Source: a virus
Taxonomy: Monodnaviria; Loebvirae; Hofneiviricota; Faserviricetes; Tubulavirales; Inoviridae
DNA: 11,202 nucleotides
Direction: 5' to 3' (one strand)
IMG/VR virus record: IMGVR_UViG_2698536573_000001
Location: 1 to 11,202 of that record
Numbering within the stretch: position 1 is the stretch's first letter; each line of letters opens with the position of its first letter. This document shows, piece by piece, positions 1-11,202 of this stretch. A program made the translations under genes and the position numbers. Under the pieces are notes generated by a model. The model was not told the DNA's origin. It worked only from the letters and a program-made list of their open reading frames with translations, and ran no database searches.

Positions 1-384
1 TTACCTAATTTCCTGAGTTTCGAGGTAATCTTTCAACACCGTAAAAGTGAAAGCAGATTTGCTTATGCAATGATCAGTTGCCAAAGACCACGCATGGAGT
101 ACCCCAGGAACCTGAGCTGGACACTTGGCAGATGCATAATGGAAGCAAATATATTTGATTAATTGGTTGCTGATTTTATCCTGACGAAAGTGGGCATAGC
201 AGCGGCTTCCTGAATAATCGAATACCCAACTGTCACTTGTTGAGCTGATATATTTGTCATCAAAATGATCTGCCGATTTAAGATAAATACTAACTGGTAT
301 ATTAACCTTTAAAATACTCTCAACAAATACAGGTGTGTAAATGTTGCTGTTCGACGCATTTAACTGTTTATTGATTCGACTCAT
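1..384 (-). CDS. hypothetical Cys/His-rich protein, co-oriented with and overlapping the 3' end of the recombinase gene
   Basis: ORF track frame 1..408. I place the start at the ATG at 382..384 (MSRINKQ...) because GGAG lies 6 nt upstream on the minus strand; the ATG at 406..408 has no Shine-Dalgarno. It overlaps the recombinase stop (368..370) by 17 nt, suggesting an operon. Several Cys/His residues in the C-terminal half; no family recognised. Confidence 0.4.
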   Translation of the reverse strand: MSRINKQLNASNSNIYTPVFVESILKVNIPVSIYLKSADHFDDKYISSTSDSWVFDYSGSRCYAHFRQDKISNQLIKYICFHYASAKCPAQVPGVLHAWSLATDHCISKSAFTFTVLKDYLETQEIR

Positions 385-1834
385 ATGCACTCCATTCATC
401 GCATACATGGGAAAAGGTTGATTTCAGGGCTTCGTTATCAATCACAATTCGCTGAAGATTGGCCGTATTAGCCTGCTGAGATAGAAATCTTTTAGCGTAA
501 AGATCAGGCATATGGCTATTGTGACTCCAACCGCCAAGTAGCCGTAATTCATCCTTGGCTTCATCCATCAATCCAACGATAGAAAAGTCTATGGCTGCCA
601 AGTGTGAGTTGGCCTTAATTTTTTGAAGTTTATCACGATAAATACGTTGAAGTGTTAAATAAGCCCAAGTATGCCGCGTTATATGAGGCGAGATGCTTTC
701 AATGGCATCATAATATTCATCTTTTTTATATTCAGGATACTGCACACTCATAATGTCATCAATACGGGTAAAGATATCATAGACTGCATGGTATGACAGT
801 GGCGGATGTAGTCTTTGGGTGGAAGTGAACAGAAAACTATGGGAGGCTTGAGGGCGGATTTTATGGATATATATATTTAGAAAATGAAAGTCCAGTTTAT
901 CTAATGCCAGCACCCGGTTTGCATAAACATTTTTTAATGAAGGCAATCTTTTTCGTTGATCCGAAACGTCGTCATCTACTGTGGTCACAATCAGGCTGAA
1001 CTGATCCCCTCGGAGATTTGGTTTGATCGAATGACACTCCAAAAGCAGTAATTCACTGACACGCAATCCGTAATTTAAAAGCAATCTGCAAATCAGAAAA
1101 TTACGTAGCTGGATTTCACCAGCGGGGAAGGGATTGAGTGGGTTTTTCTTTGAAATTGAACCGGGTGTAATGATTTGGTAAAAAGCCATGACCATCTCAG
1201 CAGTCAGACTTCGAAAGCGTTTATGGGTCGTGCCATTGTTCATCTGACGAGAATGGGTAAGAGTACGGAATTCTGCCTTATGTATCGATAAACGTCCCGT
1301 TAACTGCGTGGCAAGTCGTGTAAGCTCTTTAGGCGTGCCATCTATATATCTCGGCGAGATATACGTGTTAATCAAATATCTGATAAAACGAATAACCGAA
1401 TGTACATGCCTGATATTTGTACAACGTTGAGGCGTGGTCTGCGTAGTAGACCTTATGGTTAACGCTGGTACATATAAATGCGTATTTTCCAGATAATGAA
1501 AAAAGGCTGTAAGTTCATCAATGGCAATCAATGGATTGTGGTTCGAGGAATAGAAACTGAAGCAAAAAGTCACACCATGTTTCTGGTGCCAGAATTCATA
1601 GAAAAACTTGAGCGCTTGAAGTGAAGCGGATTGCGTGGCTGATGAACGCAAAGCAAGATGGTCGATAAGATATATTAACGGATATAAAAGCGGCTGGCGC
1701 GTGTGAGTATCCATCAGTGCCCATAAACGCTGCCGTTGGTTGATATTGAGTTGTGTAAGTATGAACACGCGGCACTTAACCTTATCAATGGTGTGGATAT
1801 GAACAAAGTAACCGACAAACATAACGTCCTGCAA
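368..1834 (-). CDS. tyrosine-type site-specific recombinase (phage-integrase family) with a long unassigned N-terminal extension
   Basis: 488-aa ORF. The C-terminal half carries the ordered tyrosine-recombinase signature: Arg in GLRVSELLLL, His-x-x-Arg in HITRHTWAY, then LGGWSH and the catalytic Tyr in MPDLYAKR. The first ~250 aa are unassigned. Track start is TTG at 1832..1834; the first ATG is 1820..1822; neither has a clear Shine-Dalgarno, so the start is uncertain. Confidence 0.75.
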   Translation of the reverse strand: MQDVMFVGYFVHIHTIDKVKCRVFILTQLNINQRQRLWALMDTHTRQPLLYPLIYLIDHLALRSSATQSASLQALKFFYEFWHQKHGVTFCFSFYSSNHNPLIAIDELTAFFHYLENTHLYVPALTIRSTTQTTPQRCTNIRHVHSVIRFIRYLINTYISPRYIDGTPKELTRLATQLTGRLSIHKAEFRTLTHSRQMNNGTTHKRFRSLTAEMVMAFYQIITPGSISKKNPLNPFPAGEIQLRNFLICRLLLNYGLRVSELLLLECHSIKPNLRGDQFSLIVTTVDDDVSDQRKRLPSLKNVYANRVLALDKLDFHFLNIYIHKIRPQASHSFLFTSTQRLHPPLSYHAVYDIFTRIDDIMSVQYPEYKKDEYYDAIESISPHITRHTWAYLTLQRIYRDKLQKIKANSHLAAIDFSIVGLMDEAKDELRLLGGWSHNSHMPDLYAKRFLSQQANTANLQRIVIDNEALKSTFSHVCDEWSAYESNQ

Positions 1835-1913
1835 GAAGAAGATAGAGGGGTAGGTAAGTGTATGATTAATCGTATCCTGTGGCCGGTTATGAACTAAATG
1901 ACCGACGGACTAA

Positions 1914-1941
1914 ATTTAACATAATATACATTATGCGCACC
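1914..1941 (-). other. dif: dif-type XerC/XerD recombination site: XerC arm 1931..1941, central region 1925..1930, XerD arm 1914..1924
   Basis: Plus strand reads ATTTAACATAATATACATTATGCGCACC. Its reverse complement is GGTGCGCATAATGTATATTATGTTAAAT, which matches the E. coli-type dif sequence as I recall it at 28 of 28 positions (GGTGCGCATAA / TGTATA / TTATGTTAAAT). Confidence 0.85.
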
Positions 1942-2081
1942 AATGGTAAGGATGGCAGAATCTGGCGGGAATCGTTGACACTGGCCGTCAACTGGCTACT
2001 ATCGACAGTGATTCAAAATCATCCGTTTCTCCAAACGAATCAGAATCAAATGTCTGTCAGCAGTAAGTGAACGGCCTGACC

Positions 2082-2330
2082 TCACCAATCAGGCCTGTTC
2101 ATCCAGTTAGTTGGTAAATCTGTACCTGATACACGAGAATCAAACACCACTTCTTCAGTGCCATCACCATGATGCCGGATAATCTGGTAACCGGATTGCG
2201 GGTTCTGGCTCTCAGCTTCATAAGCAGCCCGGAATGCTGGATCTTTGAGAAGCATCACTTTCAGCTCCTGATGTGTCATGAATTTTTCCATGATAAGCCC
2301 CGATGAATGCTGCCGCGCCGAATCAGCCAT
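2082..2330 (-). CDS. hypothetical small protein (cargo position between secretin and dif)
   Basis: 82-codon ORF co-oriented with the phage operon. No convincing Shine-Dalgarno at the first ATG (2328..2330); internal ATGs at 2289..2291 and 2277..2279 are alternative starts, so the real product may be ~65-69 aa. The segment ELKVMLLKDPAFRAAYEAE resembles N-termini of some antitoxin-like regulators, but no HTH follows. Coding status uncertain. Confidence 0.35.
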   Translation of the reverse strand: MADSARQHSSGLIMEKFMTHQELKVMLLKDPAFRAAYEAESQNPQSGYQIIRHHGDGTEEVVFDSRVSGTDLPTNWMNRPDW

Positions 2331-2452
2331 AACGCTGAAAATGGAAACTGTACGGCTTGGCCAACCCCGGACAGCAACAAAACAAGTTTTGTCACTGACC
2401 GGCGTTATCTTTCAAAACAGACAGTTAACGATTTTTTGTCTGGTGTTTATGC

Positions 2453-2479
2453 GTGAAATTTCGTGCGTACGAAATTCAC
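2453..2479. repeat. 27-bp imperfect palindrome at the 3' end of the basic-protein ORF
   Basis: Arms GTGAAATTTCG (2453..2463) and CGAAATTCAC (2470..2479) pair with one bulged base around the centre TGCGTA. No U-tract follows on either strand, so it is unlikely to be an intrinsic terminator; more likely a protein-binding or recombination-related site. Confidence 0.5.
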
Positions 2480-2724
2480 CACCAATAAACAAACGGACGA
2501 TGACTGACCGGAAAAGCAATGCCGTCAGCATCATGACCACGCATTACCTGATTGAGAAGCCTTCTGACTTCACGGCGCTCAGGCCTGGTCATCATCATAT
2601 TGCGATACCAGGACGGCGATTTATCAAACCATCTGGCACAACTGGCAAAATGTGAACCTACACGACGATAAGACTTAAGGCGGCCACCGGGAAGTCGGTC
2701 ACGCGCCTTATTTTTTACAGACAT
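2476..2724 (-). CDS. hypothetical small basic (Arg-rich) protein, possible DNA-binding accessory protein
   Basis: 82-aa ORF. ATG at 2722..2724 with GAGGA 7-8 nt upstream on the minus strand. Same orientation as the phage operon, 88 nt downstream of the secretin stop. Arg/Lys- and Trp-rich; no family recognised. Confidence 0.5.
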   Translation of the reverse strand: MSVKNKARDRLPGGRLKSYRRVGSHFASCARWFDKSPSWYRNMMMTRPERREVRRLLNQVMRGHDADGIAFPVSHRPFVYWW

Positions 2725-2812
2725 AATAAATCCTCTAAGTAACTGAATACCTAGAAGATGTCGTACTGTTCATACCCCATAAAAGTTAACGCCATAATAA
2801 AAATCCATACAA

Positions 2813-4057
2813 TCAGTTCAGGTTGTCCCGGAACAGTTCACCGCTCCTCGCGGCGCTGCGGGGCGTCGCCCTGCTCCGGTCAACCTTTCTGACCTGAAGC
2901 ATCACCATAATATCAGTCTTGTTGCTTTCACTGGTACGGGAACCGAAGAAGCTCCAGCCGGAACTGGCCTTACTGTCTTTCTGTTCAGCAAGGCCACCAA
3001 GTAAAATAATATCACCATCTGCAAGGCTGACTTCGGTTGTTACATCACGCTTGATAAGGGTTGGCGAGTTATTGACGCCGGTTTCAGTGGTCACAAAGTT
3101 GGAAAGCTGCTGCTGAATCTTGAGATCCATTGTCCGACTTTTGATTGATGGCGTTACGTTAAACAAAACACCGCTGGAACGATATTCAACGGATTGCGTG
3201 GTCGTATTGTTATTCACCGTAACACTGCCCAGTACTGGCACATCAGAGCCGACTGAAAAAGACGCTGAGGCATTATTTTTTACCCGTAGTCGTGGCGCAC
3301 TGACAACAGTAAAACGACTGTCGGTTTTAAGCAGATTGAAAATGGCATCAATGGAGCCGGTTCGAATATTGATAAAATTATCCAGTCCGGCAGCACCAAC
3401 TGAAATATTGAATTTATCAGACAGAATTTTAGCCGCTAAAAGAATGCCGGAGCCGTCAGACTGCGAGGTCTGAACCTCAAAAACATAACCAGAAACAACC
3501 ACTTCATCACTCATCGTATCCAGCGAAGTGACCAGTGTTTTCAGGATGGCGATATCCTCTTTCGTACCATAATAAACCAGAATATCACCGGTTCGATTAA
3601 TGTAGTTGCTTGCCCCTGATGAACCTTTTAGCGAATCGTCAGAAATCACGGCTCCACTGTTATTGAAGGAGCCTGAAACGTAGCCGCCAAGAATATCAGA
3701 CAGGTAGGCAACAGAACGGTACTGAGGCGTATAAGTCCATGTATAACGTGGCTTAACCGGCTCTTTCGGCGTATAGGGCGCGATAAAATCAACACCCTTT
3801 TTCGTCCATATTCGAATGTTCATATTGCCAAGATAACGGGTTACAAATTCCCGTTCATCAATATCAGGTGTTAACCTGAATGTAATCATTCGTTCATCAT
3901 TAACAAGCTGTGGATCTAGCATATACGGGACTTTAAGCACCTCACTATAAATAAGAGAAATAGCCTCCGGTAGCTTGACTTTATTTAATTCAAGCTCTGA
4001 CCCTGCGAAAGCACATGAAGAAAATAGTAGCGTTAATGCGAGTAAAATCTTTTTCAT
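2813..4057 (-). CDS. secretin, filamentous-phage pIV-like outer-membrane export channel
   Basis: 414 aa. N-terminal signal peptide MKKILLALTLLFSSCAFA. C-terminal secretin-domain hallmarks (SAPRLRVKNN..., PTLIKRDVTTEVSLADGDIILLGGL). ATG at 4055..4057 overlaps the Zot-like stop TAA (4057..4059) by 1 nt, indicating translational coupling. Confidence 0.9.
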   Translation of the reverse strand: MKKILLALTLLFSSCAFAGSELELNKVKLPEAISLIYSEVLKVPYMLDPQLVNDERMITFRLTPDIDEREFVTRYLGNMNIRIWTKKGVDFIAPYTPKEPVKPRYTWTYTPQYRSVAYLSDILGGYVSGSFNNSGAVISDDSLKGSSGASNYINRTGDILVYYGTKEDIAILKTLVTSLDTMSDEVVVSGYVFEVQTSQSDGSGILLAAKILSDKFNISVGAAGLDNFINIRTGSIDAIFNLLKTDSRFTVVSAPRLRVKNNASASFSVGSDVPVLGSVTVNNNTTTQSVEYRSSGVLFNVTPSIKSRTMDLKIQQQLSNFVTTETGVNNSPTLIKRDVTTEVSLADGDIILLGGLAEQKDSKASSGWSFFGSRTSESNKTDIMVMLQVRKVDRSRATPRSAARSGELFRDNLN

Positions 4058-5082
4058 TATTTTTTCCCCGTATAAAGCGTCACACGCTCACCATCAATAA
4101 TTCCGCTCATCAACATCCCTTTGTAATTAAAACTGGATGCAGGAACGGCACGCAAAACACCGGCACCGTTAACAAGAATCACAAACGCCCTGCCTTCACT
4201 GGTCATTCTCCCTGATATACGCCACTCGGTTGAAAGTGGCGGTTCAGCTGGTTCTGAGGGAGTATCTGGTGCTGGAGTAGCAGCGGAAGAACGAAACATG
4301 GCCGCATCACGTACATCTGTTGTAGCCAAATCTGGCGAGGGATCGCTTCGGCCAAACGTGCTGAAAAATGAGTAAATCAGCCAGCCTGACCCGATAAACA
4401 TCAATGGAAAAAGCACAAGAAAGAACCTGACTTTGCCAGAATTCCAGATGCTCTGGCGTTTATCTGTCTGCTTTTCATTACCGTTATTTCCTTCATAGCT
4501 TTTATAAAGTTCAAAAATATCAGGGTTATATTTATTGCGATAACTGGTGACGAGGTTGCTTTTATAGATTTTGTGGCCTGAATATACGTCAATGCAGTAA
4601 TGATTATTCAGGCCCAACGCTTTCAGCTTGCGCATCCGGTAAGTTGTTTCTATTTTGTCTTTCAGAAAGCGAGCAATATTAGAAAGTGACTGATTTACAA
4701 TAACCAAATCACAGCTAATACCCGTTTCAGGGTGCGTAAAATGACGATGTTCAGCAATAAATGATTTCTTCTCAGCCGTCATATCCTTATCGCTACCGAA
4801 GATTCGCCATGCTTCATCAATAACAATTAAATCACCAAACTGGCAAAAGCTCCCTTCCCCACCTTTAAAAGGAAAGAAATCTGCTTTAAGCACATCATCA
4901 TTATCCACAACAATAATTTCTCCCGTTGCATCAGGATAACGTTCGGTGATTTTATCTTTTTGTAAACCATAAATGTTCGTCACAACTCTCCGGCCGCTGG
5001 TAAATGCAGGAATAATGACATTGCAAACGGCTTCATAACTTTTTCCTGAGCCGGGTATGCCAATATATGCAGAAATAGCCAT
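4057..5082 (-). CDS. Zot-like assembly ATPase (filamentous-phage pI family)
   Basis: 341 aa. Walker A GIPGSGKS at residues 8-15, Walker B-like LIVIDEAW, and a single transmembrane segment (FFLVLFPLMFIGSGWLIYSFF) before a Pro/Ser-rich C-terminal region, as in pI/Zot. ATG at 5080..5082 lies 3 nt after the upstream gene's stop. Confidence 0.9.
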   Translation of the reverse strand: MAISAYIGIPGSGKSYEAVCNVIIPAFTSGRRVVTNIYGLQKDKITERYPDATGEIIVVDNDDVLKADFFPFKGGEGSFCQFGDLIVIDEAWRIFGSDKDMTAEKKSFIAEHRHFTHPETGISCDLVIVNQSLSNIARFLKDKIETTYRMRKLKALGLNNHYCIDVYSGHKIYKSNLVTSYRNKYNPDIFELYKSYEGNNGNEKQTDKRQSIWNSGKVRFFLVLFPLMFIGSGWLIYSFFSTFGRSDPSPDLATTDVRDAAMFRSSAATPAPDTPSEPAEPPLSTEWRISGRMTSEGRAFVILVNGAGVLRAVPASSFNYKGMLMSGIIDGERVTLYTGKK

Positions 5083-5085
5083 AAC

Positions 5086-5373
5086 TCACCCTATAACAGG
5101 AATACGTCGAATAATAAAACGAGTAGCCATTGCGGAGATAATCATACTAATCCCCTGTGGTAATTTACTCAGGTTAATGAAGTACCAGAATCCGTCTGAT
5201 AAATTGGCAAACAGCGATGAGAGATTGCTTGAATCTGGCAGTAACTCAACAAGGATTTCAACGAAGCCCTGGACTACAAAATACAGCGCAAAGAATACGA
5301 CGAATTTAATAATCAATGACCGGAATACAAAACCTAACAAAGTATTTAATGCACTAATCAGAATCCCAAACAT
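5086..5373 (-). CDS. minor coat protein, pVI-like
   Basis: 95-aa hydrophobic protein with multiple TM segments, located between the pIII-like and pI genes as in Ff phages. Strong RBS AAAGGAG 7 nt upstream of ATG 5371..5373. Assignment rests on position and composition. Confidence 0.6.
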   Translation of the reverse strand: MFGILISALNTLLGFVFRSLIIKFVVFFALYFVVQGFVEILVELLPDSSNLSSLFANLSDGFWYFINLSKLPQGISMIISAMATRFIIRRIPVIG

Positions 5374-5385
5374 AGTTGCACTCCT

Positions 5386-7098
5386 TTAGGCACTCAGAAT
5401 AATACGGAGCGCAACAAATCCCCATATAATCAGAAAAATGGTTTCTACGGCGCTTCTGTTCTGCTCAATTAACGGACAATGGGAGTCAATTCTGTACTGG
5501 TGATTAAACACGCTGAATTCAACAACGGGGCAGGATGCTGAACGAGAGCCGATGTTAAATTCGTTTGTAAAAGGCAACAAGTTAATAATTGGCGTTAAAA
5601 TATCTCTTGCCGTTGGCGTTTCTTCAAGCTCAGGCTCTTTTACACCGGGATCTTCTCCCAAATCTATATTGCCATTATTTCCAGTGTCAGACCCTGAGTT
5701 GTTATTAATGGTAATATCAATATTGACGTCAGCCCCTGCACTGTCAGATACAGGTGAAAGCATATCTAATAACGTTGGAGATAGCCTAAGTTCCGACATC
5801 GCAGAAGTTACTTCAGCCGGTGAAACCTCTTTAAACGGTAAGCCGTTATAATCGGCATTAACGGCAGCTTCAGACCACAGCTCGTTAATCATGTCGGCAA
5901 GAAGTGCTGGCGATACACTAACACTATCAAGATACTCCAGATAATCAATCATGGACTCAATATTTCCGGCCTCCAGTACTTCCGTCATGGCTTTATATTT
6001 GGTATTGGTCCAGATAGTAAGCTCACTCTTTTCATCAATATCTTTTGCGGTGTAATCCTCTTTTTCAGGAACGGCGCAAATCGTCGAATATCCACCATTT
6101 GACTGATTAGTCGTTTTACAAGGCGTGTTGTGATACTGATATTGCTTGCCTGCTGTTAAATAAGCAACGCTGTAATACATGGGAAGCCCTGCTACATTTT
6201 CATACATGGGAATACCTGCGGGAAATGAAGATGCGGCCGGGTTGCTATACAAGTGTGTAATCTCAGGTATTTCATAAAATGAGGAAGGATAAGTAAACTT
6301 ATAATTCTGTTCAGTAAAGGATACATCTCCATTACTGTTGACAACTTTATTCGTCACAGTGCGTTCAAAATTCGTTAGTGTTTCAGTATAAGTACGCGAG
6401 TTATAGTCATTAAGATAATTTCTGGCAATTTCAGTTGGATTATCACCATAGTAATAAATTAGCTCTTTCGAATCCTGATAATAATAAAGCGCATTATCTG
6501 GCGTGGAATATCCTGTTTCAACACCTACAACTGGAGAACCCGCATCCACATTATTACGACTAACATGAAGGATTACCGGACTTAATTCCTGTGGTTCAAA
6601 ATTAACGGTTATCGTCTTACTTTCACCACTTTGACCACTGTACGTTACTTCATATAAATTATCGGAAATCTTTTTACCGTTAGTCATTACCATTACCGAG
6701 CCGTCAGATGAACTCAAAGAAGACGGAACAAAAGATGATACAGCAGCAGCAATACCCGCCCACGTTGCAACACCGCTCATTTTGTATGATGAGGCAGCAG
6801 GCAAGTATTCGGCAGCATTAGCCGCAGCGCGGCCAACAAAAACACGGGTTGCTGTAAGCTGTGATACCGTATAAATCGCATCATTGGCAGCAAAGCGACG
6901 AACAAGCACCCGGCCAACGACTTTAGGAATAACAGCCCGCGCAGCCACTGCTGCAATTGCTGGTACAAATGAATATGAATATCGGGGAAAGGAAACCCAG
7001 AGAAAGGAAAAAATAAAGGAATAAACCGTCAGCCTCTTAGCCCAAGAATAACGACATAAGCTGAGACGATCCCCCATAAAAGGGAACCCAATTTCCAT
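5386..7098 (-). CDS. adsorption / minor coat protein, pIII-like
   Basis: 570 aa. Gly/Asn-rich linker (NNNSGSDTGNNGNIDLGEDPG), C-terminal membrane anchor (TIFLIIWGFVALRIILSA), position directly after the major coat gene. GGAG 8 nt upstream of ATG 7096..7098. An internal Met at 6778..6780 begins a signal-peptide-like stretch (MSGVATWAGIAAAVSSFVPSS), so the true N-terminus is uncertain. Confidence 0.65.
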   Translation of the reverse strand: MEIGFPFMGDRLSLCRYSWAKRLTVYSFIFSFLWVSFPRYSYSFVPAIAAVAARAVIPKVVGRVLVRRFAANDAIYTVSQLTATRVFVGRAAANAAEYLPAASSYKMSGVATWAGIAAAVSSFVPSSLSSSDGSVMVMTNGKKISDNLYEVTYSGQSGESKTITVNFEPQELSPVILHVSRNNVDAGSPVVGVETGYSTPDNALYYYQDSKELIYYYGDNPTEIARNYLNDYNSRTYTETLTNFERTVTNKVVNSNGDVSFTEQNYKFTYPSSFYEIPEITHLYSNPAASSFPAGIPMYENVAGLPMYYSVAYLTAGKQYQYHNTPCKTTNQSNGGYSTICAVPEKEDYTAKDIDEKSELTIWTNTKYKAMTEVLEAGNIESMIDYLEYLDSVSVSPALLADMINELWSEAAVNADYNGLPFKEVSPAEVTSAMSELRLSPTLLDMLSPVSDSAGADVNIDITINNNSGSDTGNNGNIDLGEDPGVKEPELEETPTARDILTPIINLLPFTNEFNIGSRSASCPVVEFSVFNHQYRIDSHCPLIEQNRSAVETIFLIIWGFVALRIILSA

Positions 7099-7162
7099 AA
7101 TTCAATCTCCATAATAACCTCAAGTAAAACGGGCGATATTGCATCGCCCATGAATAATGAAT

Positions 7163-7396
7163 TTATGCGGATTTAACGGTACGCAATACCCAGCGAACGC
7201 CAGCGACACCGGCATAAAGTGTTACCAGTGAAGCAGCAACGGCCATAATCGCAACCAGAACTGTACTGAAATCAATGCTGTTCGTCAGCGGCGATAAATC
7301 AACACCACTTGATGCCGCTCCTTCTGCAGCGAAAGTCGCGCCAGAAACAGCCATTAATGCAGGTACAGCCAGAAAACTAACGATTTTTTTAAACAT
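7163..7396 (-). CDS. major coat protein, pVIII-like
   Basis: 77 aa. Signal peptide MFKKIVSFLAVPALMAVSGATFA, then an acidic/amphipathic N-terminal part, a hydrophobic helix (VLVAIMAVAASLVTLYAGVAGV) and a basic C-terminus (RWVLRTVKSA). GGAG 9 nt upstream of ATG 7394..7396. Confidence 0.75.
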   Translation of the reverse strand: MFKKIVSFLAVPALMAVSGATFAAEGAASSGVDLSPLTNSIDFSTVLVAIMAVAASLVTLYAGVAGVRWVLRTVKSA

Positions 7397-7430
7397 AACT
7401 CTATCTCCATTACATTTTAAAGGTTCGCAT

Positions 7431-7682
7431 TCAAGCAGTACGAACCATCTTTATTACCTGTCCCACACCTACAGAAAAAAGCCAGAGCAGCAGGACAGAG
7501 CCAAAACCTAATGTCCAGTAATTTCCCATTGCAGAATAATCAATTTGATGAAATGGTTCAGAACGTACCATTATTGCCTGACATTCTTTTGCATTGTTCG
7601 CATTACATAAATAACCTTCAATACGGTAACCATTTTCAGGAATATGATTATCAAACTGAATATCGAAACCTGATGTATCCAT
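7431..7682 (-). CDS. small membrane protein with C-terminal TM helix and basic tail (minor-coat-like, pVII/pIX position)
   Basis: 83 aa. C-terminal hydrophobic helix (WTLGFGSVLLLWLFSVGVGQVI) followed by KMVRTA. The start ATG (7680..7682) lies 2 nt from the upstream gene's TGA stop (TGATTATG). Confidence 0.5.
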   Translation of the reverse strand: MDTSGFDIQFDNHIPENGYRIEGYLCNANNAKECQAIMVRSEPFHQIDYSAMGNYWTLGFGSVLLLWLFSVGVGQVIKMVRTA

Positions 7683-7684
7683 AA

Positions 7685-8002
7685 TCAGCCTTTTATTTCA
7701 GTAATGCCGCCATCTGATGAAATGTTATAAGTTACTCCTTCCCTCCCCTCCATTGACCAGACGCGAACATATACAGGTATCTGGACTAACTTACCGATAA
7801 AATTATTTGCCTGATTCATTACACCGGCATTAACAAGAGCCTGAGATACACGAATAATAATCTGGTCTTGCTTAGTGCCACCAAAACCATCAGGAATCTC
7901 TAAGCCAACACCAATTTCATTATAGTATCCCTGACCATTGACCTTATTACGCTGGCGAGCACCAAGCATTTTACCTTTTACAAAAAGACCATAATTAGAC
8001 AT
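7685..8002 (-). CDS. putative ssDNA-binding protein (gV / RstB position)
   Basis: 105-aa ORF immediately downstream of the replication initiator. Strong RBS AAAGGAGAG 4 nt before ATG 8000..8002. Functional call is by position only; I see no clear similarity to Ff gV. Confidence 0.4.
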   Translation of the reverse strand: MSNYGLFVKGKMLGARQRNKVNGQGYYNEIGVGLEIPDGFGGTKQDQIIIRVSQALVNAGVMNQANNFIGKLVQIPVYVRVWSMEGREGVTYNISSDGGITEIKG

Positions 8003-8013
8003 ATCACTCTCCT

Positions 8014-9066
8014 TTAATGCCAGTTACTGGCATGTGAAATACGGTTATAATCGAAAATTAAACCTTTCTCATAAACCCATGATGGAATTTTGGCTGGTTT
8101 GGCTTCAAGAGTACGAACCAACGGAACAACGTTATTAGAATCCGGTGACTCACAATAAAAGTTAATATCTATTCCGAAAGAAAGTAATTCTTTACGGTGT
8201 CGGTAGAATGTAGGTTTCGGTAACATCTCTTTCATGTTCGCGCCCTGCTTCCACAATAAATATGTAGACTGTATTTTTCTTGGGAGATTAATTATTTTTT
8301 CATCAGTTAATATGGTATTTTGATTCATTTCTATTCTCCCTACATAGTCAGAGAATAATTTATTGGGCGTCTCAATATTCCAGCTATTACCAAGCGTAAG
8401 ATTCAAATCAATTAATTCAGTTGTTCTTAATGTTAATTCAATGCGTAATTTATCTTTTGACCAGTCCAGTAAACCAGCTTTAACGAATTCGTCTGCCATC
8501 TGGTGCCCTTTTTTGCCAGATGTATGCTCATCATATTTTGAATAAAATTTCAGGCTCCAACGACGGGAGTTTTTCCCTAAGTAAACAGTGCCACCTTTAC
8601 CACAGGCGCGACCGTGGCGAGTTTTAGCTTTAAATTCTGCGGCATATAACCATGCGCGGACATTTTCTAATGTTGACAATGAATACATGTAATTGATATC
8701 GATGCGCGAGATCTTAAATTGCCCTTCCATGACCTGCCGATAGGATGGTAGATCATGAGGAATATGCAGTAATGCCAATATTCTGGCGTAAGCTGTTAAC
8801 ACCAACCCTTGCAAATCGTCGGAACCGATAACAGAGTGACCTTGCAAAAACTTTGATGGATTACCGTCAATGTAGAGATGTGTTGCCCGACCTTCACCAT
8901 CAGATCCAACAGACCTTACTTTCATTGTGGACTCATGCGAACCGCGAACTGTCAACCGTTTTACTGTTTCCCACTCCACTGCACCGTCAGCATCGACGCT
9001 GACGACACTACCAGCCGGTAACGGTCGGTGTGTGCAAGGCAGGATTCCGGTAAACCAGTCGATCAT
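8014..9066 (-). CDS. rolling-circle replication initiation protein, filamentous-phage gII family
   Basis: 350 aa. Starts MIDWFTGILPCTH. Shares motifs with Ff gene II protein as recalled from memory (not verified): LQGHSVIG vs LQGHNVFG, ISRID, and NNVVPLVR near the C-terminus. Confidence 0.85.
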   Translation of the reverse strand: MIDWFTGILPCTHRPLPAGSVVSVDADGAVEWETVKRLTVRGSHESTMKVRSVGSDGEGRATHLYIDGNPSKFLQGHSVIGSDDLQGLVLTAYARILALLHIPHDLPSYRQVMEGQFKISRIDINYMYSLSTLENVRAWLYAAEFKAKTRHGRACGKGGTVYLGKNSRRWSLKFYSKYDEHTSGKKGHQMADEFVKAGLLDWSKDKLRIELTLRTTELIDLNLTLGNSWNIETPNKLFSDYVGRIEMNQNTILTDEKIINLPRKIQSTYLLWKQGANMKEMLPKPTFYRHRKELLSFGIDINFYCESPDSNNVVPLVRTLEAKPAKIPSWVYEKGLIFDYNRISHASNWH

Positions 9067-9237
9067 AAGTAGTCACACCCATCAAAATATGTGTCAATAG
9101 TCATTTGTGAGCAGATTGAATGGTCACAATGTAATATGCTCAGATCTGACAGTCAATACATTTGCAATGTTTAAATTGTCAGAAATGAGCATCAAATCTA
9201 ACTATTGAAAAACCACTGTTAAGATGGAGCCAAGTAG
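9067..9237. promoter_or_regulatory. divergent control region between the replication gene and the repressor gene (candidate operators, promoters or origin)
   Basis: 171-bp intergenic region with no ORF. Repeats: TGAGCA at 9108..9113 and 9186..9191 with inverted copy TGCTCA at 9137..9142; 7-bp inverted repeat TCTGACA (9145..9151) / TGTCAGA (9177..9183); direct repeat GTCAATA at 9094..9100 and 9152..9158. Promoter hexamers not assigned with confidence. Confidence 0.5.
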
Positions 9238-9684
9238 ATGGGCAACAATGAGCATGAAGTTATGGCGGACAAACAGAGAGCAGAACGTATCAAAAAGGTA
9301 ATTCTGGAACACTCGACTTATGAAGAACTGGCCGAGAAGACTGGCATTAGCGTGAGTACGCTGGTCAGGATAGCGTCCGGCAAAACTGAACCTAAATTCA
9401 GTGACATCATTCAGATAGCTAAAATTACTGGTGCAGACTTAAACACCTTAGCTTATGGCTATGCTCTTGATGTTAAAGAAGAAGCTACCGAGCGGAAGCT
9501 AATCACTTCTGCGGATGGATATACTGATGAAGAAACCACTAACGCACATAATTTCATCGTGTGGAACATCAGGACACTGGAAAAACAAGATATTCTGGCA
9601 CTCGCAAGGCAGGTTTCTGCCTTAAGTTCATACACTTACAGTACTAAAATGTTTATGAAAAAAGCGGTGTCTGGAGAAGAGTAA
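9238..9684 (+). CDS. HTH transcriptional regulator (XRE / Cro-C1 type), phage repressor-like
   Basis: 148 aa. Predicted helix-turn-helix in the N-terminal third (STYEELAEKTGISVSTLVRIASGKTEP). GGAG 8 nt upstream of ATG 9238. Divergent from the replication gene, as for filamentous-phage repressors. No Ser-Lys peptidase (LexA-like) motif in the C-terminal part. Confidence 0.8.
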   Translation: MGNNEHEVMADKQRAERIKKVILEHSTYEELAEKTGISVSTLVRIASGKTEPKFSDIIQIAKITGADLNTLAYGYALDVKEEATERKLITSADGYTDEETTNAHNFIVWNIRTLEKQDILALARQVSALSSYTYSTKMFMKKAVSGEE

Positions 9685-9712
9685 AAGGATTAACAGTCTC
9701 AGGAATGAGACA

Positions 9713-9751
9713 AACGTGCAGTATTACCAACACTGCACGTTCTTTATTGTG
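9713..9751 (+). terminator. intrinsic terminator-like hairpin downstream of the repressor gene
   Basis: Perfect 10-bp stem AACGTGCAGT (9713..9722) / ACTGCACGTT (9732..9741) with a 9-nt loop, followed by CTTTATTGTG (interrupted T-run). Confidence 0.6.
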
Positions 9752-9783
9752 CGAGTTTTGAATAGCGAAAAAGGATCAAAAGG

Positions 9784-10206
9784 ATGAGTAGAAATAACGA
9801 AACAAGCGGCGTTGAACTGGTTGTCGTGGGCGTATTTGCTTTCTGTCTGGCAGTTGTTGCCTGGCTAATGAAAACTTTCGATGTTGAATGGCAAACAGCA
9901 CTGGAAACTGCGCCTGGCCTGATAGTCTGGTTGCTTGTTGTCGGTGCGGGGATCTTTTTCGGGATCAAAATGGAAACTGGTCTTGTTCGCTGGGGTGCTC
10001 CACTTGCGATCGCCCTTCTGATTCCGGTATTCAAACCAATTCTTAAGGAAGCAGCCGGAGTTCGTGAAATGGGCGGGTTAGTTTTCGATGATATGGTTTC
10101 GTGGTACGGAACTGGCTGGGGAATGTCGCTGATGTTCTTCGGGATTCTTATCGTCGGATACGGCCTACTTTATTGGTGGCACAGAAGAAAGTCATATTAC
10201 TGGTAA
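9784..10206 (+). CDS. small integral membrane protein (about four TM helices), function unknown
   Basis: 140 aa with four hydrophobic segments (about residues 11-29, 45-62, 70-85, 112-131) and a Trp/Tyr/Arg-rich C-terminus. ATG 9784 preceded by AAGGA. Co-oriented with the repressor. GC content resembles the phage core. Confidence 0.6.
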   Translation: MSRNNETSGVELVVVGVFAFCLAVVAWLMKTFDVEWQTALETAPGLIVWLLVVGAGIFFGIKMETGLVRWGAPLAIALLIPVFKPILKEAAGVREMGGLVFDDMVSWYGTGWGMSLMFFGILIVGYGLLYWWHRRKSYYW

Positions 10207-10317
10207 CTCCGCCGCGGGAAACCACGGTAAAGTTCGGGTGTCACTGAACCCCGAACCGCAAGCGGTTAAATAGCAATCAACTATAGAGAGTAAGTCAAAA
10301 CATATAAGGGTTAAATA

Positions 10318-10785
10318 ATGACAGTATCTCTTGGCGATGTGTTTGGTGGTTTGGCGTTTTTTCTCTCAATCTATGCAACAATTAAAACCGTAAAGTTCAA
10401 TGAAAGACAAAAAGCGTTAATAGAAGCGCAAGAAAGGTTAACGAATCTCCAACTTACTAAAGAAAAAAATGAGTTGGAAAGTTCAAAGAAAGCTGATATT
10501 AGTGCAAGCATGGTCTCTGTAGGAAATAGAGAATATAAACTAAGAGTTATTAATAAAGGGAAGGTTTCTGCGAAAAATGTAAGAATAGAATTTCCCGATA
10601 ATAATTCACCAGTATCAATGAGTGACGTTAAAAGCAAATTTCCGCTTGAGTATCTCGCGACAGATCAACCAGTCGATCTCATTGCGTCAGGAGAGTTAGG
10701 TCGAGCAAGGAAATTTACTGTAAGACTAATGTGGGATGACGATTTCAAGGATGATAATGAAATTGTTTTACATATAACATATTGA
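10318..10785 (+). CDS. hypothetical membrane-anchored protein (N-terminal TM helix, predicted coiled-coil, C-terminal beta-rich domain)
   Basis: 155 aa. N-terminal hydrophobic helix (LGDVFGGLAFFLSIYATI), then a charged helical stretch (ERQKALIEAQERLTNLQLTKEKNELESSKK). AAGGG 7 nt upstream of ATG 10318. AT-rich codon usage, distinct from the phage core. Confidence 0.55.
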   Translation: MTVSLGDVFGGLAFFLSIYATIKTVKFNERQKALIEAQERLTNLQLTKEKNELESSKKADISASMVSVGNREYKLRVINKGKVSAKNVRIEFPDNNSPVSMSDVKSKFPLEYLATDQPVDLIASGELGRARKFTVRLMWDDDFKDDNEIVLHITY

Positions 10786-10830
10786 TTTAAATACACTTTA
10801 TATCGAAGCAAAACAAGTAGAGGAGTAAGG

Positions 10831-11202
10831 ATGAAAAATCAACTTTATAGCCGTCAAGGAATATACGACATAATCAGAAGCCACTATTTAAGAAACTTTC
10901 CATATACGATTGAATTTGAAGCGCTTAATGCAATAAATGAACACATTAGCCTTATAATTGATAGCGCATCAATACAAAAAAATGAAAGTGGTGAGTACGT
11001 ATTTATCAATAATAATCCTAATATGGAAGTTGATGACCCATTTGAAAGCACAGAGAGAAATCTTGCTGCTTATCTATCAAAGTCTAGTGGTGTTGAAGCG
11101 TTATTCCAAGATGTGAACGCATTACAAAAATGGTTGCTCCAATATGGATTTATCCATGGTGGTATAGCGACTGAAAAAATGCTGGTTACGAATAAACTAT
11201 AA
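10831..11202 (+). CDS. hypothetical soluble acidic protein
   Basis: 123-aa ORF ending with TAA at the window edge. Strong RBS GGAG 5 nt upstream of ATG 10831. Same AT-rich composition as the preceding gene and 45 nt downstream of it, so probably co-transcribed. Confidence 0.55.
   Translation: MKNQLYSRQGIYDIIRSHYLRNFPYTIEFEALNAINEHISLIIDSASIQKNESGEYVFINNNPNMEVDDPFESTERNLAAYLSKSSGVEALFQDVNALQKWLLQYGFIHGGIATEKMLVTNKL

Follow-up and report, generated by a model that had tools for sequence, protein, structure and literature searches.

The filamentous prophages YpfΦ and CUS-1 are associated with Yersinia pestis of the third pandemic and with invasive Escherichia coli K1. Two genes of YpfΦ, YPO2280a and YPO2281, adjoin attR, have no predictable function, are conserved in CUS-1 and occupy the place of ctxAB, and the function of such end-of-genome open reading frames (ORFs) has been named an open question (Derbise & Carniel 2014, PMC4266046). 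Here, a DNA stretch of 11,202 nucleotides (nt), positions 1 to 11,202 of the IMG/VR virus record IMGVR_UViG_2698536573_000001 and hereafter called the window, was analysed. By its gene content and attachment sites, the window is a tandem CUS-1/YpfΦ filamentous prophage of the CTXφ type, integrated by Xer recombination, and it carries the same two genes at the same place beside attR/dif. They are referred to as ORF A and ORF B, their matching to the locus tags YPO2280a and YPO2281 being based on gene order. A preliminary description of the window had pointed to two small ORFs between the secretin gene and dif, at the position of the CTXφ toxin genes. Both ORFs were found there, next to an exact dif site (1913-1940) and the secretin gene (2813..4057), and the positional analogy is correct; since the YpfΦ review already gives the genes and the comparison with ctxAB, however, this central point repeats the literature.

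Gating of translation by a leader is known from other systems. In tap-repA of plasmid R1, mok-hok, ermC and the cat leaders, the end of an upstream ORF lies in the 5' arm of a hairpin whose 3' arm hides the Shine-Dalgarno sequence or the start codon, and translation of the leader, or stalling on it, opens the site. The reading that we favour, with moderate confidence, is that ORF A belongs to a self-contained accessory cassette of this general kind, in which leader-gated translation would yield a nucleic-acid-binding effector, ORF B being separate cargo. What is new here is the constraint on ORF A, the unannotated protein family to which it belongs, the leader with its hairpin, and the recurrence of leader, hairpin and ORF as a unit outside inoviruses. 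The features concerned, in the direction of transcription, are the following.

2813..4057, minus strand: pIV-type secretin gene, the upstream neighbour (PF00263, E=1e-24; phrog_1012, E=8e-138)
2751..2795, minus strand: unannotated leader micro-ORF of 14 codons, MALTFMGYEQYDIF-stop, with its ATG 17 nt past the secretin stop codon
2730..2759, minus strand: predicted Shine-Dalgarno-sequestering hairpin with a 12-pair stem
2476..2724, minus strand: ORF A, 82 amino acids (aa), isoelectric point 11.5, by gene order the homologue of YPO2280a (identified by homologues, substitution ratios and profile search)
2082..2291, minus strand: ORF B, 69 aa, isoelectric point 5.15, by gene order the homologue of YPO2281 (phrog_6642, E=1e-53 from Met14)
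1913..1940, minus strand: the chromosomal dif that serves as attR of the prophage array, identical to E. coli dif over all 28 nt

ORF A is a conserved gene

ORF A is the Arg/Trp-rich basic protein that the preliminary description had reported, with 14 Arg and 4 Trp residues and a net charge of about +12, and its length of 82 codons is constant in >30 loci. The ratio of non-synonymous to synonymous substitutions (dN/dS) relative to the window copy is 0.12-0.26, at dS values of 0.6 to >2 that are near saturation. Judged by this substitution pattern, ORF A is a genuine gene under purifying selection. In Y. pestis NCTC5923, ORF A is 100% and ORF B 97% identical to the window.

The conservation of ORF A exceeds that of the morphogenesis genes across about 30 dif-linked inoviruses. 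In Xenorhabdus phages it is 65-70% identical, against 46-49% for the secretin, 41-49% for pI and 28-37% for pIII, and no homologues of the Rep and G5P proteins of this phage were detectable in these ORF A-bearing phages. The secretin is just 26% identical in three loci in which ORF A keeps 59-65%, and ORF A alone is recognisable in the Zobellella locus. Over the related dif-linked inoviruses as a whole, identities range from 59 to 70% for ORF A and from 26 to 49% for the secretin. Within the inovirus lineage that was recovered with ORF A as the query, the gene is by these comparisons constant, not variable cargo. The earlier notion of a cargo position therefore applies to ORF B, which is optional and patchy (see below), but not to ORF A, which is the best-conserved protein.

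The family extends far beyond filamentous phages. A profile search of 1.84 billion representative proteins (50% clustering) returned 149 cluster representatives at E<=1e-3, with a C-terminal signature that is always located at the protein end: P-x-W-W-x-N-x-x-M-T-R-P-x-R-R … G-x-D-x-D … F-P-L-x-x-K-P-x-x-Y-Y-W-COOH. A scan of one genome per species gave 17 loci with ORF A, in Yersinia, Pantoea, Brenneria, Xenorhabdus, an Enterobacteriaceae metagenome-assembled genome and Zobellella, and 20 further loci came from a scan of viral contigs. The cassette is present in 117 of the 5,426 complete E. coli genomes, with a median of two copies, and its leader is annotated in none of them. Only one of 50,697 deposited phage genomes, an unannotated 3.6-kb record, contains a match, and ORF A is thus not a core inovirus gene. 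Fifty plasmid records carry the family (Salmonella IncFIB, Acetobacter, Komagataeibacter, Phaeobacter and others). Loci outside the inoviruses include the following.

L022 and L025: tailed phages, with the ORF A homologue between holin and terminase
L027: tailed-phage-like contig, with the homologue beside lysis genes
L125: temperate tailed phage, with the homologue 3' of lysis genes and 5' of an XRE/ImmA module
L020: plasmid-like contig with ParA, PIN and Gp49
L048: island resembling an integrative and conjugative element (ICE), with integrase, ParA and HTH_17, 62% GC
L050: Rep3 plasmid-like contig
L053: island rich in toxin-antitoxin and Fic genes
L292: Salmonella IncFIB plasmid

These matches place ORF A in a widespread family of mobile-element proteins that has no annotation. 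Canonical intrinsic terminators end the homologue in L050, L051 and L292, which are plasmids or plasmid-like. One further locus, L026, was considered as a copy adjacent to an attachment site and dropped, as the tRNAs for Glu and Asp on its upstream side may simply belong to a phage tRNA cluster.

No Pfam or NCBIfam model covers the family, and PHROGs gives isolated marginal matches only, such as phrog_12343 for ORF A itself (E=0.001, function unknown). Ten distant ORF A relatives, run against Pfam, NCBIfam, PADLOC and PDB sequences, likewise had no significant match. The preliminary description could place neither protein in a known family, and indeed neither ORF A nor ORF B has a match in Pfam, NCBIfam, PADLOC or the PDB sequences. 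Predicted structures, which it had proposed as a check, could be taken through for one of the two proteins: the AlphaFold2 (AF2) model of ORF B, two helices and a β-hairpin with a predicted local distance difference test score (pLDDT) of 70, has no PDB fold match at E<=0.001, whereas that of ORF A, built from 18 homologues, was too poor (pLDDT 50) and was not used for a fold search.

Three known roles were considered for ORF A and dropped. A Xer activation factor like XafT does not agree with an attP of the CTX type, which uses XerC only, nor with the presence of the family in elements that have their own integrases or none. A conserved domain shared by unrelated elements is unfit for an RstC-like antirepressor, and the likeness to ribosomal protein S21, of which ORF A might have been a mimic, is confined to the N-terminus and has no Pfam match behind it.

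A leader micro-ORF and a hairpin precede ORF A

The Shine-Dalgarno sequence of ORF A, AGAGGA (2731-2736), lies 6 nt 5' of its ATG. The good ribosome-binding site noted in the preliminary description is therefore present, but it is buried in a conserved hairpin together with the end of the leader micro-ORF. The leader in the window ends …GYEQYDIF-stop. Every inovirus locus examined has such a leader ahead of ORF A, 11-14 codons long and with the ending (G)YEQ[L/Y/Q/K]DIF-stop, and the distance from its stop codon to the ATG of ORF A is fixed at 24-29 nt. The 5' arm of the hairpin is composed of the last leader codons and the stop codon (AUC UUC UAG GUA), and the 3' arm carries AGAGGA. An equivalent hairpin of 12-16 bp, with a predicted minimum free energy (MFE) of -12 to -22 kcal/mol, is found in all related loci. 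In an alignment of 14 sequences (A4), pairing is kept in 92% of cells, compared with 40-54% in slid controls; one pair is changed on both sides and nine pairs show one-sided, wobble-compatible changes.

In the 14 distinct leader sequences, the amino acids of the Y, E, I and F codons are invariant and only third positions change. The codons for G, Y, E and Q are not part of the stem. In the GC-rich, ICE-like L048 the D and I codons are unpaired and D-I-F is still retained. This pattern is suggestive of selection on the sequence of the leader peptide. Leader and hairpin also accompany homologues outside inoviruses that share the N-terminal motif MS-x-K-N…DR; the leaders read at the individual loci, more remote ones included, are these.

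L027: …MSYDIF-stop
L125: MLIRWYFQKDIF-stop
L020: …AYQEMDIF-stop
L048: MHYLDQDIF-stop
L292: MYLLQEHF-stop, the stem covering the main AUG
L050: …HYRKALDAL-stop
L051: MFYYALSRF-stop

The pattern GAYATYTTCTAR…GAGG was also searched in viral contigs. This DNA scan was permissive, with 8 genuine cases among 237 matches, that is, cases with a short leader, a hairpin and a downstream ORF. All 8/8 then carry an ORF A-family gene, which indicates that the leader is specific to this family.

The same conservation could be a matter of RNA structure. The micro-ORF would then provide structural coupling only, or the hairpin would be a fourU-like RNA thermometer, and a peptide without function would be conserved through RNA pairing and relatedness. 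The codons ATC TTC TAG are indeed the anti-Shine-Dalgarno arm itself, distant family members have unrelated leaders or tiny mini-ORFs, and Xenorhabdus variants pair UUUUCU with AGAGGA. Pairing of a Shine-Dalgarno sequence with a U-run of this sort resembles fourU thermometers, and known coupling leaders, tap of plasmid R1 for example, work irrespective of the peptide sequence. Against a purely structural role, the Y and E codons are outside the hairpin and yet change at third positions only, and D-I-F survives in L048 where two of its codons do not pair. Moreover, the ending aromatic…D-I-F persists over elements of Alpha- and Gammaproteobacteria that span 40-62% GC, and, as regards a thermometer, stems of 12-16 bp with the stabilities predicted at 37 °C look too stable. 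Such an explanation is rather unlikely in our judgement, and selection on the peptide is retained in the model below.

No sigma-70 promoter was predicted on the minus strand upstream of the cassette in the window. In Xenorhabdus loci L008 and L010-L014, a conserved TATAAT (…TTGGCTATAATCTGG…) is found ~25-45 nt upstream of the leader, together with a strong Shine-Dalgarno sequence. This element hints at an independent cassette promoter in those phages, where the promoter scan made no call and there is no -35 match.

ORF B is optional cargo

The preliminary description had a second, acidic-to-neutral protein ending at 2082, which agrees with ORF B once its start is revised. The mechanical ORF spans 2082..2330 (82 aa) and PGAP annotates 65 aa (MTHQEL…), while the homologues and phrog_6642, a family of unknown function, support 69 aa (MEKFMTH…). 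The corresponding ATG (2289-2291) has GGGG 7 nt upstream, and homologues start M-K/T-K-F-T-T-H. A core of 55 aa is conserved in at least seven genera (Escherichia, Yersinia, Salmonella, Raoultella, Brenneria, Pectobacterium and Xenorhabdus), and the C-terminal tail differs between homologues. By this conservation ORF B is a genuine gene, more than a chance ORF. The lack of conservation or coding signal that had been set against the two ORFs in advance is observed for neither, given this core and the dN/dS of ORF A.

ORF B is carried by phages of the E. coli, Yersinia and Salmonella types, by two Brenneria phages and by some Xenorhabdus phages. It is missing in roughly half of the ORF A-bearing inovirus loci, among them Pantoea L005, Zobellella L018 and several Xenorhabdus and Salmonella-type contigs. 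Elsewhere it has decayed while ORF A is intact, by an in-frame stop codon in Xenorhabdus L008 and L009 and by a 31-codon deletion in the E. coli-type contig L034. Its distribution, patchy as for a moron, is that of optional, dispensable cargo. Between the stop codon of ORF A and dif lie 31 nt in Zobellella, 125 nt in Pantoea and as much as ~2.4 kb in other loci, which places the variable slot between ORF A and attP, with ORF B as one occupant.

These observations bear on the proposal, made in the preliminary description, that the basic and acidic proteins form a toxin-antitoxin-like module. The toxin would come first, and the acidic protein would neutralise or regulate it. The two genes are adjacent, co-directional and small, and the proteins are of opposite charge (isoelectric points 11.5 vs 5.15). 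The tight predicted repression of ORF A translation would suit a harmful product, and some homologues are located in toxin-antitoxin-rich islands. In addition, small acidic ORFs (59-76 aa, isoelectric point about 5.0-5.2) lie closely 3' of the homologue in L053 (9261-9446), L050 (1921-2151) and L027 (502-723), mirroring the charge pattern of ORF A and ORF B. These downstream ORFs are, however, unrelated to one another, a structured spacer of 191 nt parts ORF A from ORF B, and the copy on the Salmonella plasmid runs straight into an intrinsic terminator. Neither a toxin nor an antitoxin family was matched in Pfam, NCBIfam or PADLOC, and the ORF B model lacks a fold match. Because ORF B is optional and decaying, an obligate toxin-antitoxin pair is not supported, and we consider a two-gene module of this type improbable.

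A second possibility is that the two genes are virulence cargo in the manner of ctxAB, encoding host-interaction factors behind the modest fitness benefit that CUS-1 and YpfΦ confer in animals. They share the position of ctxAB, the prophage aids virulence in mouse and infant-rat models and these ORFs have been named as candidates (PMC4266046). The GC content of the ORF A/ORF B region (0.45-0.48) is slightly above that of neighbouring phage genes. On the other side, direct reading of the sequences reveals no N-terminal hydrophobic signal in either protein, and ORF B is dispensable. The family also occurs in insect- or nematode-associated and environmental bacteria (Xenorhabdus, Brenneria, Pantoea, Zobellella, Acetobacter, Phaeobacter) and in tailed phages, a spread which argues for a function inside the bacterium and not against an animal host. 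A role as virulence cargo therefore appears most improbable.

Some smaller features were found around the 3' end of ORF B.

2070..2099, minus strand: hairpin (AACAGGCCTGA..TCAGGCCGTT), seen on direct reading of the sequence; the ORF B stop codon and variable C-terminal tail overlap it

The best sigma-70-like site of the region (1975-2002, plus strand; TTGACA-16 nt-TACTAT, 10/12 matches) points antisense into ORF B. A search of 1850-2950 against Rfam identified no family; the only match, to the antitoxin small RNA OrzO-P (21 bits, E=1.1), was treated as chance. It lies at 2004-2100 and starts just past the antisense promoter-like site, probably by chance as well, though an antisense RNA is conceivable there.

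Hairpins between ORF A and ORF B

The 191-nt spacer between the two genes (2292-2482) folds better than shuffled sequences, both as RNA (z = -3.05) and as DNA (z = -3.15). It contains three hairpins.

2451..2482, minus strand: HP1, the palindrome of the preliminary description, overlapping the ORF A stop codon
2418-2442, minus strand: HP2, a 6-bp stem with a 13-nt loop, followed by UUUU (to 2414), from the MFE fold of 2292-2482
2362..2407, minus strand: HP3, a 19-bp imperfect hairpin, followed by a conserved GGCCAAGCC motif, the strongest structure of the spacer

The imperfect palindrome had been given as 2453..2479 without a U-tract, which is accurate, and had been read as a binding or recombination site. 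It consists of GTGAAATTTCGT / ACGAAATTCAC, with a perfect 8-nt core (2457-2464 / 2469-2476), and no U-tract follows. Close relatives have an unrelated palindrome at this position, TTTTAGC-C-GCTAAAA, and Brenneria alni has both. This replacement argues against one specific protein-binding sequence, and a positional 3'-end or single-strand structure would fit better. HP2 looks like a weak terminator in the predicted fold, for which the terminator scan made no call. HP3 and the GGCCAAGCC motif are conserved in phages of E. coli, Yersinia, Salmonella, Pantoea and Brenneria; they are found even in Pantoea L005, where ORF B is absent. In alignment A5, pairing of HP3 is kept in 95% of cells vs 35-58% in slid controls, with little covariation.

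A cis-acting function of the spacer in phage DNA, palindrome included, as a packaging signal and/or a minus-strand origin rather than a site for protein binding or recombination linked to the ORFs, would account for several of these features. The spacer is unusually structured as single-stranded DNA (ssDNA), HP3 is conserved in sequence across genera and kept where ORF B is absent, and every related phage has some strong hairpin directly 3' of ORF A. In Ff phages the packaging signal and the minus-strand origin directly follow gene IV. The swap of HP1 for an unrelated palindrome speaks against such a function, the G·U pairs in HP3 suit RNA equally, and the ordinary intrinsic terminators of L050, L051 and L292 suggest that a 3' hairpin may simply be a transcript end. 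A dedicated packaging or replication signal is conceivable but rather unlikely as the main function. Most likely, the spacer hairpins, HP1 included, define where the long phage operon ends on its 3' side or serve as signals in the single-stranded DNA.

A model for the ORF A cassette

The comparisons above demonstrate the gene status of ORF A and the architecture, conservation and distribution of the cassette. From this arrangement we infer that leader translation opens the hairpin, that pausing depends on the peptide, that ORF A binds nucleic acid and that its dose is critical. The constant unit would comprise the 14-codon leader, the RNA hairpin and ORF A. In the free mRNA, the ribosome-binding site of ORF A would be shut in the hairpin. 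A ribosome arriving at the end of the leader would unzip the 5' arm and free the Shine-Dalgarno sequence, which lies 17-22 nt past the leader stop codon, so that the amount of ORF A made would be set by how often the leader is translated. In the present phage, the ribosome on the leader would probably come from the secretin gene by re-initiation, since the leader begins 17 nt past the secretin stop codon and its own Shine-Dalgarno sequence is weak. The nascent leader peptide probably prolongs the pause at the stop codon, as suggested by the conservation of its C-terminal residues as amino acids, and the gate could respond to a cellular condition.

ORF A itself would act as an accessory effector, sensitive to dose and binding nucleic acid, with no part in assembly, packaging or Xer recombination. 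This proposal draws on its charge of +12, an Arg-rich helix start (TRPERRE), conserved Trp and Tyr residues, the obligatory aromatic C-terminus, the tight gating and the many kinds of mobile element that carry it. ORF B would be separate, dispensable cargo between the cassette and attP.

Several points weigh against this model. Covariation in the hairpin is modest, with a single two-sided pair change, so that support for the structure comes mainly from the conservation of pairing, and the 94-nt region of the window taken alone is not significantly more stable than shuffles (z = -1.4). The conservation of the D-I-F codons is partly confounded with anti-Shine-Dalgarno pairing, and the leader's own Shine-Dalgarno sequence in the window is weak. 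Remoter family members have other leaders (…DAL-stop, …SRF-stop), mini-ORFs of 2-5 codons within the hairpin, or no obvious leader; peptide-specific stalling is therefore not general to the whole family. The presence of ORF A in all related loci is partly by construction, as ORF A was the search query. The unrelated acidic ORFs that follow several homologues keep a two-gene neutraliser model alive. Finally, with no family or fold match and a poor AF2 model, ORF A offers no handle on its function.

A bolder version of the model can be put forward. Inoviruses, tailed phages, plasmids and integrative elements, from both Alpha- and Gammaproteobacteria, would share the …aromatic-x-x-D-I-F-stop leader as a new class of ribosome-arrest peptide that acts by termination pausing. 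The leader would respond to a cellular cue, for instance a metabolite or the state of translation or of release factors, and would thereby turn on ORF A, a conserved small basic effector and the long-sought accessory function of YpfΦ and CUS-1. We regard this extension as unlikely.

The prophage and its attachment sites

The minus strand of the window carries a complete inovirus gene set according to Pfam and PHROGs, and PGAP agrees. The gene order is Rep (Phage_CRI/G2P), a G5P-type ssDNA-binding protein, small coat proteins, a pIII-like protein, pVI, a Zot-like pI and the pIV secretin, and a divergent helix-turn-helix (HTH) repressor adjoins Rep. Pfam matches to Phage_CRI, G5P, Zot and Secretin represent the core genes by which an inovirus is recognised. 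In megablast searches, bases 1800-2900 are 100% identical to E. coli O6:H16 M9682-C1, whose prophage is a head-to-tail tandem with a unit of 9,357 bp. From base 1912/1913 on, identity is 99.9-100% to UTI89, NU14, F11 and other extraintestinal pathogenic E. coli (ExPEC) strains, and the matches from strains other than M9682-C1, e.g. UTI89, begin at this edge of dif.

On the phage-sense strand, dif reads GGTGCGCATAATGTATATTATGTTAAAT. A dif-like site in the same orientation lies downstream of ORF A in 13 related loci, and such a site is present in every locus that is neither an internal tandem copy nor a contig end. At the tandem junction (L001:21405-21505), about 70-170 nt past the right end of the window, two inverted XerC/XerD-like sites flank a GC-rich apical stem. 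As ssDNA they form a predicted forked hairpin (-31 kcal/mol, z = -7.5), in which GGTGCGCATAA pairs with TTATGCGAACC. By this structure, the attP of the prophage is of the CTXφ type, as in Xer-dependent integrating inoviruses (integrative mobile elements exploiting Xer, IMEX).

To the left of dif (1-1834, minus strand) there are two tyrosine-recombinase-like genes. A 488-aa ORF has a weak Phage_integrase match, its C-terminal 127 aa matching phrog_18324 (E=2e-89), and a 135-aa ORF is annotated as a truncated integrase. In the source genome, the two genes are followed by an IS1. The UTI89 flank differs on this side, so that the source strain has another element or a rearrangement beside dif. The attL side (9784-11202, plus strand) encodes a 140-aa membrane protein, a 155-aa ORF that PADLOC weakly matches to the candidate defence protein PDC-S57 (E=3e-4), and a third ORF, at least 123 aa long. 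It is here that the genes of this phage, UTI89 CUS-1 and YpfΦ differ, in agreement with PMC4266046. A GC-rich motif, CCCCGCAGCGSYGCGAGGAG, is located within the last secretin codons (2841-2864, minus strand). Its DNA is conserved in Xenorhabdus phages (L008, 6813-6836), where it lies 3' of the secretin stop codon and reads as a terminator-like hairpin on the opposite strand.

Comparison with known systems

For annotation, the results supply a coding micro-ORF so far missing from the records of 117 complete E. coli genomes, a candidate for a new regulatory leader peptide, and a new protein family for curation. Travelling with its own putative translational gate, ORF A makes the YpfΦ/CUS-1 question experimentally approachable; should simple translational coupling of an ordinary small regulator turn out to be all that is involved, the gain would be a modest one of annotation. 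A literature search on the locus tags, the protein accessions and inovirus leader peptides returned no functional data and no paper on the leader, the hairpin or the family. Compared with the published account of YpfΦ (PMC4266046), which contains neither the leader ORF nor the Shine-Dalgarno-sequestering hairpin nor the wider protein family, these three elements are additions.

With CTXφ, the prophage shares the layout of the accessory region and an attP that, as ssDNA, is a CTX-type fork of inverted XerC/XerD sites. ORF A and ORF B, however, show no sequence or family kinship to ctxAB, ORF A is conserved clade-wide instead of being lineage-specific cargo, and neither protein has a secretion signal.

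Phage morons offer a second comparison. Like them, ORF A-family cassettes are terminal in late operons, where they follow lysis genes or lie between holin and terminase, the copies of L050, L051 and L292 have intrinsic terminators, and ORF B is patchy. With respect to the promoter and terminator expected of a moron, the hairpins of the window have no U-tract, while the three plasmid or plasmid-like loci have canonical terminators. In contrast to morons, no sigma-70 promoter is predicted upstream in the window, and ORF A is constant in the recovered inovirus clade.

The closest mechanistic parallel is with tap-repA and ermC. As in those systems, the end of the leader is built into the stem that hides the downstream gene: its UAG lies within 2730-2759, and the 3' arm pairs AGAGGA in all loci. 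To our knowledge, the leader peptide (aromatic…D-I-F-stop) resembles no known arrest peptide, and we know of no antisense RNA or inducer for this leader. It differs from tap-repA and ermC in that a pause, if any, would occur at the stop codon, and in that the gated gene encodes a basic protein instead of a Rep protein, a methylase or a Hok-type toxin. The leader, hairpin and ORF A would thus constitute a case of leader-gated translation attached to a new protein family.

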